A DNA stretch of 64,000 nt from an uncultured Candidatus Saccharibacteria bacterium (GCA_964357605.1 CAYHLX010000001.1:5159-69158), one strand, 5' to 3'. Counted from the first letter of the stretch, positions 47,515-53,548 are shown. Made by a program: numbers and translations. The notes: generated by a model not told the origin, from the sequence alone.

Positions 47515-50751
<3,237 letters not shown>

Positions 50752-50802
50752 AGGGAAAGTATAGCAAAAAATGGCTCAAGAATGTGGTCAAAATTTTGCT
50801 TG

Positions 50803-50838
50803 ACTTTTGGTTATATTATGTTGTATAATTGAAGTGGT
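50803..50838 (+). promoter_or_regulatory. Candidate sigma70-type promoter of the DGR target gene (TTGACT - 18 nt - TATAAT), followed by about a 140-nt leader
   Basis: ttgacttttggttatattatgttgtataattg, read directly. The long untranslated leader before the GTG 50975 / ATG 50984 start has no recognised motif. Confidence 0.4.
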
Positions 50839-50974
50839 TTTAAAGAGCACTTTTACAAGAGAAGAGACGATCCGCTACAGCGTTGAGAGGCTTAAAACAG
50901 ATAAAACTAGGCAATTCAAAGCTGTGGCGGACCATGTCGGTACGTCATACGGCACATAACAAACACGATGAAAG

Positions 50975-51736
50975 GTGATAACGATGAACACATCGATTAC
51001 ATCGAACCAGACAGAACAAGTAGCAACCTTCACTGCAGATGCCGCCCGCTCCGGCGCCCGAAACGTCATGGAACGAGTCGCGAAGATTGAAGGTGTCTCC
51101 CGAGACAGCCTTCAGGCAAGAGTCATCGAAAAAGGCAACGAGCTGACCAAGTTCGTAAGTCGGGAAGTTGAAGCTCTTCTGGAGAGCAAGCTTCTCGCAA
51201 TGCTGATGATCATGCTCGACCACCTCAAGGTGATCATGGTAGGATCAGTGAAAATTGCGACTATGCCCCGCATGAAAGTTGTTGATTGCCTCAAGCAAGA
51301 CGGCGTGATCATCGGCTGGCGTGATGACGATCTGGATGGCTGGCTCTCGGAATATGTTTCAGCGATGCCTACAGGGACAATCAACTGCATGGAACTTACG
51401 AAGCCCGAAGGCACAACTTTCCGCCAGATGGCTGAAGCGGCCCTAGGCATGGCCGGGGCTAACGACGCAGAGCTGAAAAAAGCTCTTCGTGAACGTGGAA
51501 TGACCTTCCACCTTGAACAAGTTCGGGATCTCATCACGAGAACCGAAGCTAAAGAGGAGACAGGCTTCCATAAGGACGGCAAAGCCAACCTCCTTTTTAT
51601 CGAGGATGAGAATGGGGAAGTCTTTGGGCTCCGCGTCCGTCGGGATGACTGCTGGGGGGTGCGCGTCGACTCCTTTGGCAACGACCGCGAGTGGCTTCAG
51701 GGCCGTCGTTTCTTCTCTCGCAACATGCCTGCGTAA
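50975..51736 (+). CDS. DGR target (variable) protein; C-terminal about 36 aa encoded by the VR
   Basis: The VR occupies the last about 106 nt before the stop. The VR-encoded tail 'VFGLRVRRDDCWGVRVDSFGNDREWLQGRRFFSRN' corresponds to the TR-encoded 'IFGLNVNRNDYWKVNVNSFDNDNEWNQGNRFFSRN' (AAC/Asn-rich, as is usual for DGR templates). GC content is visibly higher than in flanking genes. No signal peptide is evident. An alternative start at ATG 50984 has a GGTG Shine-Dalgarno. Confidence 0.75.
   Translation: MITMNTSITSNQTEQVATFTADAARSGARNVMERVAKIEGVSRDSLQARVIEKGNELTKFVSREVEALLESKLLAMLMIMLDHLKVIMVGSVKIATMPRMKVVDCLKQDGVIIGWRDDDLDGWLSEYVSAMPTGTINCMELTKPEGTTFRQMAEAALGMAGANDAELKKALRERGMTFHLEQVRDLITRTEAKEETGFHKDGKANLLFIEDENGEVFGLRVRRDDCWGVRVDSFGNDREWLQGRRFFSRNMPA
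51619..51724 (+). repeat. DGR variable region (VR)
   Basis: Manual alignment to 52014..52119 gives 85/106 identical. Every one of the 21 differences is VR G/C/T opposite a TR A (g/a, cg/aa, cg/aa, g/a, g/a, g/a, gg/aa, cg/aa, g/a, g/a, cg/aa, ct/aa, cg/aa, c/a). Confidence 0.85.
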
Positions 51737-51742
51737 GCAGGC
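51727..51742 (+). promoter_or_regulatory. GC-rich hairpin immediately 3' of VR (gcctgc GTAA gcaggc), with the TAA stop codon inside the tetraloop
   Basis: Read directly. A 6-bp perfect stem with a 4-nt loop in this position matches the hairpin/cruciform element known to flank VR in DGRs and to promote target recognition. Confidence 0.5.
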
Positions 51743-51779
51743 AAGGTTTAGATCCTTGGGTCTTTGGACACTTGGATTC

Positions 51780-51812
51780 AAAGGGGCGTTCGCAAGAATG
51801 CCCCTTTCTGCT
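51780..51812 (+). terminator. Rho-independent terminator of the target gene
   Basis: aaggggcgttcgcaagaatgcccctttctgc: stem aggggc/gcccct followed by a T-rich tract. Confidence 0.5.
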
Positions 51813-52013
51813 ATACTCAAAAAGGCTTTGTTGACATTTCCGTTCACTAAATAGTGGATTGAGGTGACAAAGTCTTTTTCAATCGTTTTATTTTGTTGAA
51901 AAATAAAAAAAGAAAAAAGTTGGTACATGAAACTGGTGAGTGATAGGACTCAAAATAATATACAATCTGGAGACAACCTCAACAGACAGTGACATGGAAG
52001 GTTTTGTGTACAT

Positions 52014-52119
52014 AATCTTTGGGCTCAACGTCAATCGGAATGACTACTGGAAGGTGAACGTCAACTCCTTTGACAACGACAACGAGTGGAATCAGGGCAA
52101 TCGTTTCTTCTCTCGAAAC
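52014..52119 (+). repeat. DGR template region (TR)
   Basis: Adenine-rich cognate of the VR (see the VR feature). It lies in non-coding context between the target gene and the avd/RT genes. Confidence 0.85.
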
Positions 52120-52128
52120 TGTTTCTTT

Positions 52129-52148
52129 CTCCCGCATCAGAGCGGGAG
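52129..52148 (+). promoter_or_regulatory. Hairpin 10 nt downstream of TR (ctcccgc atcaga gcgggag) followed by ttttctttc
   Basis: Perfect 7-bp stem, read directly. It is a plus-strand terminator-like or structured 'spacer' element of the TR RNA, and it overlaps the 3' end of the antisense avd ORF. Confidence 0.4.
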
Positions 52149-52436
52149 TTTTCTTTCTAGAGGAAGGTTTTGTAGTTCCTTATGCCATCCACCGATCATT
52201 TTTCCTGGTTCAATTAAAGTCTTTGAAAGAGCTATGTATCTTTTGTCATCAAGTACTTTTATTTCCCAAGCTACATTTAGGAAAATTTTTAAACAATCTA
52301 GTTTGGTTACTGCTTTCTTTAAATGCGGCATTTTTTCCGTTCTGGGGCTCAAGGCACTCAGACTCAGATTTTCTATAAGTTCTATGAAAAGTGAGTCTAT
52401 TTTTCCGGCAATGGTGTGTCTTTTGGATTTTGGCAT
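52137..52436 (-). CDS. avd: Avd-like accessory variability determinant (four-helix-bundle protein); true start probably upstream at 52524 but out of frame because of a G10 tract
   Basis: The C-terminal 'KLDCLKIFLNVAWEIKVLDDKRYIALSKTLIEPGKMIGGWHKEL' matches the conserved ...L...lgyl.eeey..l...ieeigkmLngli of Avd / 23S-IVS four-helix-bundle proteins. 'MPKSKRHTIAGKIDSLFIELIENL' aligns to the FPKEEKYgLtsQlRRAavSIpaNIAEG helix. The in-frame upstream sequence 'AHSLPVLLKLISSYKLWQQYFDS' supplies helix 1 but has no start codon. An ATG-ATG (52524/52521) sits in the -1 frame just across a G10 run. Confidence 0.6.
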   Translation of the reverse strand: MPKSKRHTIAGKIDSLFIELIENLSLSALSPRTEKMPHLKKAVTKLDCLKIFLNVAWEIKVLDDKRYIALSKTLIEPGKMIGGWHKELQNLPLERKLPL

Positions 52437-52505
52437 GCTATCAAAATACTGTTGCCAAAGTTTATAACTTGAGATTAACTTTAATAAAACTGGTAAGCTG
52501 TGTGC

Positions 52506-52515
52506 GGGGGGGGGG
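52506..52515. repeat. G10 (C10 on the avd strand) homopolymer in the 31-nt divergent intergenic/5' region between avd and the RT
   Basis: Read directly: tgtgc gggggggggg tgaca. This is an exceptional run in a roughly 40% GC genome. With 9 G the avd ORF would start MMSPPPAHSLPV... and be 128 aa. Confidence 0.9.
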
Positions 52516-52555
52516 TGACATCATAGGTTTTAGGTTATCATAATAAGGTTTATAT

Positions 52556-53548
52556 ATGAAGACATATGTTGATATTATTTCTACAAACAATTTACTCAAA
52601 GTTTGGAAAGAATTTTTACGTGGAAAGAAAAAACGTAAGGATGTGAATGTATTTTCACTGCATCTTATGGACAATATCTTTAGGCTTCATAAAGATATGA
52701 AAAATAAAGAATATAAACATGATGAATATGAAGCATTTGGTATTTCTGATCCAAAGCCTCGCAAGATTCACAAGGCTACAGTCAGAGATCGCCTAGTTCA
52801 CCATGTCTTGTATGAAGCCTTATCCCCACAGTTCAATCAAAGATTTATTTCTGATTCATATTCTTGTCGTCTCAATAAAGGGATGCACCGCGCCCTCGCA
52901 AGATTTAAAATATATTCAGGAAAGGTGAGTAAAAACAATACCAAAACATGCTGGATTTTGAAATGTGATATTAGAAAATTCTTTGCTTCTATTGATCAAT
53001 CTATTCTCACATCCATTCTTGAAAAATATATTTCTGATAAAGACATTCTTTGGCTGCTGTCTAATGTCATACATAGTTTCCATAGTACTGCTCCAGGAAA
53101 AGGACTACCTCTGGGTAATCTGACCTCACAATTGTTGGTCAATATTTACATGAACGAATTTGATCAATTTGTAAAACATAAACTCAAAATAAAATGCTAT
53201 ATTCGTTATGCCGATGATTTTGTTGTTTTTGATTCTTGCAAAAGTAATTTGGAAAATCTTATAATTATTTTCAGGGAATTTCTAAAAGAAAATCTAAAGC
53301 TTGACCTGCATCCCAATAAAGTTTTCATAAAAACTCTAGCATCAGGTGTTGATTTTCTCGGCTGGGTTCATTTTCCTAACCACCGAGTGTTGCGTACAGT
53401 TACAAAAAAGAGAATGATGAAGAAAATAAAATCAGGTTTTCGGCCAGAAGTCATAGCTTCGTATATTGGTATGCTTGAACATGGAGATGCTTATACCTTG
53501 CGAAAGAATATAGAAAATCTTCCAGAAATCGAGATAAAGCCGAAATAA
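52556..53548 (+). CDS. DGR-type reverse transcriptase
   Basis: 'GLPLGNLTSQLLVNIYMNEFD' is the DGR-specific motif 4 (I/LGxxxSQ). 'IRYADDFVVF' is YxDD motif 5. 'ISDPKPRKIHKATVRDRLVHHVLYEAL' covers motifs 1-2. The compact 330-aa size and the absence of maturase/endonuclease or intron RNA features fit a DGR RT. Confidence 0.85.
   Translation: MKTYVDIISTNNLLKVWKEFLRGKKKRKDVNVFSLHLMDNIFRLHKDMKNKEYKHDEYEAFGISDPKPRKIHKATVRDRLVHHVLYEALSPQFNQRFISDSYSCRLNKGMHRALARFKIYSGKVSKNNTKTCWILKCDIRKFFASIDQSILTSILEKYISDKDILWLLSNVIHSFHSTAPGKGLPLGNLTSQLLVNIYMNEFDQFVKHKLKIKCYIRYADDFVVFDSCKSNLENLIIIFREFLKENLKLDLHPNKVFIKTLASGVDFLGWVHFPNHRVLRTVTKKRMMKKIKSGFRPEVIASYIGMLEHGDAYTLRKNIENLPEIEIKPK

Follow-up and report, generated by a model that had tools for sequence, protein, structure and literature searches.

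The DGR locus

The window, by which we mean the whole stretch of 64,000 nucleotides that was analysed, carries a diversity-generating retroelement (DGR). Its parts and the inverted repeats that accompany them are listed here in order of position.

50975..51736, plus strand: DGR target gene, whose product is an orphan protein (250-253 aa) containing the VR in its C-terminus (ORF, alignment)
51620..51724, plus strand: variable region (VR), aligned to the TR without gaps and with 19 mismatches, all at TR adenines
51706..51724, plus strand: IMH-like invariant 3' end of the VR, TCGTTTCTTCTCTCGCAAC (CGCAAC in the VR, CGAAAC in the TR)
51726..51743, no strand assigned: VR-adjacent hairpin T-GCCTGC / GTAA / GCAGGC-A (inverted-repeat search, DNA and RNA folds)
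51734..51736, plus strand: stop codon (TAA) of the target gene, occupying positions 2-4 of the loop (ORF end; not conserved, CAA in L001)
51752..51777, plus strand: weak copy of a clade-wide interrupted hairpin, ATCC-tt-G.GTC-tttg-GAC.C-tt-GGAT (DNA fold)
51780..51807, plus strand: terminator-like 12-bp hairpin with a GCAA loop, about 40 nt downstream of the VR hairpin (inverted repeat)
52016..52120, plus strand: template region (TR) (alignment to the VR)
52129..52157, plus strand: TR-flank hairpin CTCCCGC-ATCAGA-GCGGGAG followed by TTTTCTTTC, terminator-like (inverted repeat, terminator scan)
52137..~52525, minus strand: avd, bAvd family (Pfam PF22296), between the TR and the RT gene on the opposite strand
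52506..52515, no strand assigned: G10 tract, read as C10 on the avd strand and lying some 40 nt before the RT start codon
52556..53548, plus strand: DGR reverse transcriptase (RT; Pfam RVT_1)

The element beside the hairpin is a genuine DGR. It possesses an RT, an A-specific TR/VR pair and the accessory gene avd, the last with its frame broken at the C10 tract. Changes in the VR affect 19 of the 29 TR adenines, and all 19 mismatches are A-specific. The order TR-(avd)-RT corresponds to architecture/class B3 of Wu et al. 2018 (PMC5758913). Thousands of relatives of the RT were found at 60-67% identity, and those that carry a name belong to the Patescibacteria/CPR. The target protein matched no Pfam family and is represented by only two clusters among the 5.8 billion representatives of the protein collection searched. 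Its gene is richer in GC (50-57%) than the window (41.6%) and the RT gene (about 33%). Since GC skew is positive in 13 of the 16 4-kb bins of the window, the target gene is co-directional with the inferred direction of replication.

The invariant 3' end of the VR is pyrimidine-rich and has 47% GC, and thus does not correspond to the GC-rich IMH that an earlier reading of this DNA, made from the sequence alone, had described. Position 51722 of the VR, opposite 52118 of the TR, was considered as the last mutagenised adenine (CGAAAC to CGCAAC); this idea was dropped, the C being found in 16 of 17 loci. Where the TR has CGAAA(C), the VR of these 16 has CGCAA, and the exception, L001, has CGTAA; all three codons specify Arg. 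Because of this recurrence of C, the difference between CGCAA and CGAAA looks like a fixed IMH/IMH* difference rather than the outcome of random adenine mutagenesis.

A stem-loop directly downstream of the VR

The sequence-only reading had placed a hairpin, gcctgc-GTAA-gcaggc, at 51727..51742 and had identified loop positions 2-4 as the TAA stop of the target gene; this description is accurate to the base. The stem core is a perfect 6-bp helix with five G-C pairs, closed over a loop of exactly 4 nt (GTAA, 51733..51736). Pairing of T51726 with A51743 adds a seventh pair, giving a 7-bp stem in which five G-C pairs are counted. The interval 51720..51749 can be written gcaac-a-t-GCCTGC-GTAA-GCAGGC-a-aggttt; the 5' context of the hairpin is ctcgcaac-a and the sequence following the closing A is aggtttagatcc. 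The last base shared by VR and TR is C51724, so the hairpin is separated from the VR by A51725 alone if the stem is taken as 7 bp, or by A51725 and T51726 if it is taken as 6 bp. The hairpin sequence is absent 3' of the TR.

The stop codon falls in the loop because the VR occupies the last codons of the target ORF; across the clade the stop usually lies within about 10 nt of the VR end. The sequence-only reading had seen a meaningful compression of the recognition element onto the stop codon. In the relative L001 the loop is GCAA and the ORF is extended (...NMPAQAGKV) up to a TAG located 9 nt further on, which places the hairpin wholly inside coding sequence, and in phage BPP-1 the mtd stop lies in the spacer. 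As L001 has no stop in its loop, a function for the loop stop codon was rejected and, judging from these alignments, the presence of a stop codon inside the loop is a coincidence.

The hairpin was also considered as a terminator of the target gene. The tail that follows the stem, AAGGTTTAGATCC, provides no T/U tract directly after it, and the terminator scan did not flag this hairpin. A separate terminator-like hairpin lies downstream at 51780..51807, and its stem shows compensatory changes in L001 and L002 (GGGGCG/CGCCCC-type to GGAGCG or GGGACA, with matching partners). The terminator assignment was therefore rejected for the VR-adjacent hairpin. An Rfam scan of 50500..53000 at a permissive E-value returned only chance-level matches to unrelated families.

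Comparison with characterised DGR hairpins

Stem-loops flanking the VR are established enhancers of DGR retrohoming. The reference case is BPP-1, in which an 8-bp GC-rich inverted repeat with a GAAA loop, located 4 bp after the VR, is needed for efficient homing (PMC3240598). The structure of its stem matters while the stem sequence does not, and both the size and the sequence of the loop matter (PMC3240598). Shifting the hairpin alters the efficiency of homing without changing the cDNA integration site, and deletion of the 4-bp spacer, which contains the mtd stop, impaired homing (PMC3240598). In a 2026 study, deletion of the repeat impaired a reconstituted BPP-1 system severely but not completely; the same study proposed a lagging-strand-template model in which a co-directional target has the favoured orientation (PMC12875486). 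Phage DGRs share stems of 7-10 bp, GRNA loops and distances of 4-34 bp from the VR (Guo et al. 2011, PMC3240598), and of the 372 DGRs surveyed by Wu et al. 2018 (PMC5758913), 34% had GC-rich inverted repeats after the IMH.

The window hairpin resembles that of BPP-1 in being a GC-rich inverted repeat directly 3' of the VR, with a 4-nt G..A loop and a stop codon beside or within it, and in that its sequence is absent after the TR. In position and general nature it also agrees with the repeats that Wu et al. 2018 (PMC5758913) found after the IMH. It differs from the 8-bp stem, GAAA loop and 4-bp spacer of BPP-1 in having a stem of 6-7 bp, a GTAA loop and a spacer of 1-2 nt; its stop lies in the loop instead of the spacer, and a pyrimidine-rich sequence of 47% GC takes the place of the (GC)14 IMH. 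Measured against the features common to phage DGRs, it follows the VR of a bona fide DGR target as expected; its stem enters the 7-10 bp range, at the lower border, only if the T51726-A51743 pair is counted; its loop has a pyrimidine at position 2 and is not GRNA; and its spacer, 1 nt with the 7-bp stem or 2 nt with the 6-bp stem, falls short of 4-34 bp.

The claim that the hairpin has exactly the geometry of known elements is thus contradicted by the stem (6-7 bp), the loops (GTAA, GCAA or TTAA in the window and its relatives) and the distance (1-2 nt). What stands of the sequence-only reading is that a VR-proximal, VR-specific stem-loop, of a kind known to enhance retrohoming (PMC3240598), accompanies a bona fide DGR; the specifics had been overstated. 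The hairpin had also been said to mark the 3' boundary of homing, which disagrees with the relocation experiments in BPP-1, where the cDNA integration site did not move. Nor does the hairpin itself argue for a functional element: such an argument comes from the A-only differences between VR and TR and from the intact RT, with avd out of frame. Unlike the hairpins captured by the MyDGR rule (PMC6602519), the window hairpin has neither a GRNA loop nor a distance of 4-34 bp, and the MyDGR rule would probably miss it; rule-based detectors of this type probably do so in general because of the non-GRNA loop, the tiny spacer and the want of a GC-rich IMH.

Folding and expectation by chance

The VR-adjacent hairpin is the sole one of its class (perfect stem of at least 6 bp, at least five G-C pairs, loop of 3 or 4 nt) in the 64-kb window. 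Mononucleotide shuffles yielded 0.53 +/- 0.67 hairpins of the 4-nt-loop class per 64 kb. By arithmetic estimate, the odds that a hairpin of this kind begins no more than 35 nt from a given point are about 3e-4 at the composition of the window, about 2e-3 at the local GC content of 55% and about 1e-2 when loops of 3-6 nt are allowed. The 25-nt hairpin core folds as DNA at -8.8 kcal/mol (z = -5.3, none of 200 shuffles as stable), its complementary strand folds equally well as DNA, and as RNA it reaches -13.5 kcal/mol (z = -4.6). All four sequence variants are predicted to form the hairpin in both DNA and RNA folds. Over the 61-nt stretch for which the sequence-only reading had proposed a fold, z is only -1.7, and 9 of 200 shuffles were as stable. 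The hairpin is real and its position is unlikely to be due to chance; the statistics are not overwhelming.

Conservation among close relatives

Relatives were searched in proteins, genomes, metagenomes and viral contigs, and three independent lineages only were found: the population of the window itself (L083, L084/L085), L001 and L002. A search of metagenome contigs with the flank pattern, without requirement for the hairpin, returned only a contig of the same population, and pattern scans of viral contigs gave chance matches or nothing, the sole double match (L091) being an unrelated duplicated gene. The closest contigs are of Hainich groundwater origin. L083 is identical to the window, and the RT of L001 and L002 is 88% and 80% identical, respectively, to that of the window.

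The hairpin is kept in all three lineages. In L002 the stem reads GCCTGT/GCAGGC around the same GTAA loop; the C to T change produces a T.G closing pair, the seventh pair is lost, and DNA stability is lowered to -5.5 kcal/mol. This C-G to T.G change is the only one in the stem, and no compensatory double change was found among the three lineages. The test of conservation by which the sequence-only reading had proposed to be judged gave a mixed answer, the closest relatives retaining the stem and showing no compensatory changes in it, and most of the wider clade having a different stem-loop a little further downstream.

Across the three lineages, identity is 90-93% in the VR-to-TR spacer and 79-85% in the RT gene. 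At the level of these alignments, constraint appears to act on the whole spacer without singling out the hairpin. Given the divergence of the RT gene, about 4.4 substitutions were expected in the stem and one was observed (Poisson p ~0.07, an arithmetic estimate).

L084/L085 represent one ERZ1292625 contig of 2x coverage which differs from the window at two places in the region. One is a VR codon at a TR-adenine position, CTT against GTT (Leu to Val), and the other is in the hairpin loop, GTAA against TTAA. The VR-codon change fits ongoing DGR mutagenesis; at 2x coverage, both differences could be sequencing errors.

Structures after the VR in the wider clade

Using an alignment of 36 RTs, 80 Patescibacteria loci were fetched, and A-specific TR/VR pairs were detected in 58 of them, with the same layout throughout. 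Of 59 independent loci, only 3 have a GC-rich short-loop hairpin within 45 nt after the VR, where 0.31 would be expected (Poisson p ~0.004): the window (loop GTAA), L017 (GGA) and L069 (GAA). Such hairpins are therefore enriched about 10-fold after the VR yet far from universal, which fits the 34% figure of Wu et al. (PMC5758913). The comparison with other DGRs of this kind, as suggested by the sequence-only reading, thus shows about 95% of the related loci to be without this hairpin; a different conserved stem-loop occurs slightly further downstream.

This second structure was recognised from 5-mers of the CTTGG/CTTAG/CTTTG type, which are 10-21 times enriched in the 70 nt after the VR, with a spacing of 7-8 nt. 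In about 1.18 Mb, both strands considered, 36 of the 51 clusters of at least three CTTGG-type motifs lie in the 95 nt after a VR. In many loci these regions fold, as DNA, into a hairpin of about 45 nt in which helices of 4-6 bp alternate with T-rich or pyrimidine-rich internal loops, the apex often being near +30 nt from the VR. Mirror-complementarity about an apex at +22 to +41 reaches at least 12 paired positions out of 19 in 23% of VR flanks and in 3% of controls (Mann-Whitney p = 4e-5 for the enrichment in VR flanks). Unpaired positions on the sense strand are predominantly pyrimidine-pyrimidine (91, against 16 purine-purine), and a clade-wide test of strand asymmetry was uninformative (G.T 22, A.C 17). 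The helix sequences vary between loci and pairing is kept.

In the window, where the corresponding region is 51745..51780, the CTTGG-type repeat cluster spans 51755..51775, and the copy of the interrupted hairpin at 51752..51777 is weak, with a G.A mismatch where L001 and L002 have G.T. An interrupted VR-flank hairpin is absent from the DGR papers used here for comparison; an interrupted fold-back after the VR in most relatives is apparently so far undescribed.

Inverted repeats around the TR

Unlike BPP-1, the window also has a GC-rich inverted repeat of its own at the TR. The TR-flank repeat is 7 bp long, starts 8 nt past the TR end and is followed by a T-run; in its stem (52129..52148) L002 carries a compensatory change from C-G to T-A. 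It suggests that the TR is made as a short RNA ending at this hairpin, or that the hairpin corresponds, in this clade, to the Sp region. Because the TR also has a GC-rich inverted repeat, the presence of a hairpin alone cannot tell recipient from donor.

Equivalents of the TR-flank hairpin (a CTC...GAG base followed by TTTT(G)TTT) form a perfect stem in 47 of 61 entries and an imperfect one in most others. In L003-L082 they lie 5-20 nt after the TR and the inner stem is variable. Between the terminator-like hairpin of the target and the TR, the spacer (51813..52015) is non-coding. It includes a small hairpin at about 51843..51858 with a compensatory change (TTCACT-AAAT-AGTGGA versus TTCTCT-AAAT/AAAC-AGAGGA). 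Sigma-70-like matches of the form GTGACA-N16/18-CATAAT precede both the TR (51989..52016) and the RT gene (52515..52544); the -35 match before the TR is not conserved in L001 or L002.

Possible roles of the hairpin

By analogy with BPP-1, the hairpin may be a lineage-specific variant of the known DGR target stem-loop that enhances retrohoming, an explanation which we prefer and to which we give about even credence. A single-stranded sense strand, or negative supercoiling, would allow the inverted repeat to fold, and single-strandedness of the sense strand would be expected on the lagging-strand template, the target being co-directional with replication as inferred from GC skew. With the repeat folded, the VR would be kept open at its 3' end, such that the adenine-mutagenised cDNA could pair and integrate, and the repeat would in this way raise the efficiency of mutagenic retrohoming. 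In support of this explanation are the complete DGR (target-VR / TR / (avd) / RT) and a stable GC repeat that is found at the VR only and is kept in relatives. Counting against it are a stem without compensatory change, a loop that is not GRNA, a spacer of 1-2 nt and a conservation that is not hairpin-specific; moreover, most related loci carry a different structure, and avd is out of frame.

Part of the same evidence can be read at the level of RNA, the hairpin being then a cGNRAg-capped structure at the mRNA 3' end that protects the transcript or modulates transcriptional or translational termination and takes no part in retrohoming. Intrinsic terminators, and the terminator stem-loops targeted by group IIC introns, share with the window hairpin a GC-rich stem capped by a GNRA-type tetraloop and a place at the 3' end of a gene. 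The loops GUAA (window and L002) and GCAA (L001) belong to the GNRA tetraloops, the sole change in the stem is G.U-compatible on the sense strand, the RNA fold is very stable, and the hairpin 40 nt downstream has a cGCAAg loop as well. The window hairpin is unlike intrinsic terminators, however, in having no T/U tract, and a separate terminator-like hairpin is already present at 51780..51807. Ribosomes would unfold the hairpin of L001, which lies wholly within coding sequence; the loop of the low-coverage variant L084, UUAA, is not of the GNRA type; and in the hairpins of L017 and L069 a C-G pair closes a triloop, GGA and GAA respectively. Such C-G-closed triloops are classic stable DNA mini-hairpin loops and are not favoured RNA loops. 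An RNA-level role is on this balance unlikely. The hairpin could also be a functionless palindrome that arose by chance, or hitch-hiked, and has persisted through recent divergence and the conservation of the whole spacer. The only three lineages available show a single change in the loop, another in the closing pair and no covariation; relative to RT divergence, the shortage of substitutions in the stem is marginal (Poisson p ~0.07), the flanking spacer is equally conserved, the 61-nt fold has a z of just -1.7, and most of the clade has no such hairpin. The positional coincidence that this would demand is itself improbable (about 1e-3 to 1e-2), similar GC hairpins are enriched about 10-fold after VRs in the clade, and the geometry is near that of an experimentally validated element, that of BPP-1, and we do not consider absence of function a likely explanation.

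The interrupted hairpin introduces a further alternative, in which the fold at 51752..51777 is the real target-recognition structure and the GC hairpin is accessory to it, or a compensating addition where it has decayed. The CTTGG-type 5-mer enrichment, the concentration of clusters after VRs (36/51), the nested helices and the mirror-complementarity all agree with a conserved structure there, and the window copy has a G.A mismatch in place of the G.T of L001 and L002. This alternative and a role for the GC hairpin could both hold. The lineage of the window still has the interrupted hairpin, whose own DGR role is putative and which could instead belong to the target 3' UTR or terminator region; we hold this alternative to be very improbable. 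A broader proposal, possible but doubtful, is that the canonical GC hairpin has been largely replaced in the clade by the interrupted hairpin of about 45 nt (helices of 4-6 bp, T.T or C.T internal loops, apex often near +30 nt), and that the GC hairpin of the window, which abuts the VR and is accompanied by a partly decayed copy of the interrupted one, is a compensating, interchangeable module. Were this correct, DGR target recognition would read a stable fold-back next to the IMH and not one particular hairpin, and new targets could be recruited by gaining any such fold-back structure.

As one more putative instance of an established class of retrohoming enhancers, the hairpin adds little on its own. 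It documents a boundary case, a functional-looking hairpin whose loop is not GRNA, whose spacer is almost nil and which has no GC-rich IMH beside it; detectors such as MyDGR would probably pass over it. This case and the different fold-back of most relatives both bear on DGR target recognition and on the engineering and prediction of targets in uncultivated Patescibacteria. The clade-level items (the interrupted VR-flank hairpin, the TR-flank hairpin and the poly-G/C tract) may outweigh the hairpin itself in interest.

The avd frame and the poly-G/C tract

Relative to the upstream ATGATG, the avd frame of the window is broken at the C10 tract, so that this genome may carry an inactive element. 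The displacement is by one nucleotide in the window and in L001, while L002 has avd in frame, coding for a 129-aa Avd. Of 61 related entries, 54 have a G8-G12 tract at the same place, ahead of the RT gene and separated from its start by a few to about 40 nt. On the avd strand the tract encodes PPP, and the frame of the avd body is open across it in every case. An in-frame ATG, GTG or TTG occurs upstream of the tract in only 20 of the 54, about one third being expected at random, and avd has no in-frame start in about two thirds of the loci.

High-frequency length switching at the poly-C tract was considered and rejected: there is no length polymorphism, and among ten assemblies with identical RT, nine have G10 and one is a substitution variant. 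High-frequency phase variation is thus not evident; expression of avd may involve transcriptional slippage, +1 frameshifting on CCC-C or another start. A literature search for this conserved avd-tract arrangement found no description of it.

A different arrangement was observed in one relative, the element carrying RT P0023 (L106-L115). There the ATG of avd and the ATG of the RT gene abut back-to-back on opposite strands with no intergenic space, so each gene's promoter must lie inside the other gene. The G tract of this element is only G5, and its Avd (124 aa) is in frame.
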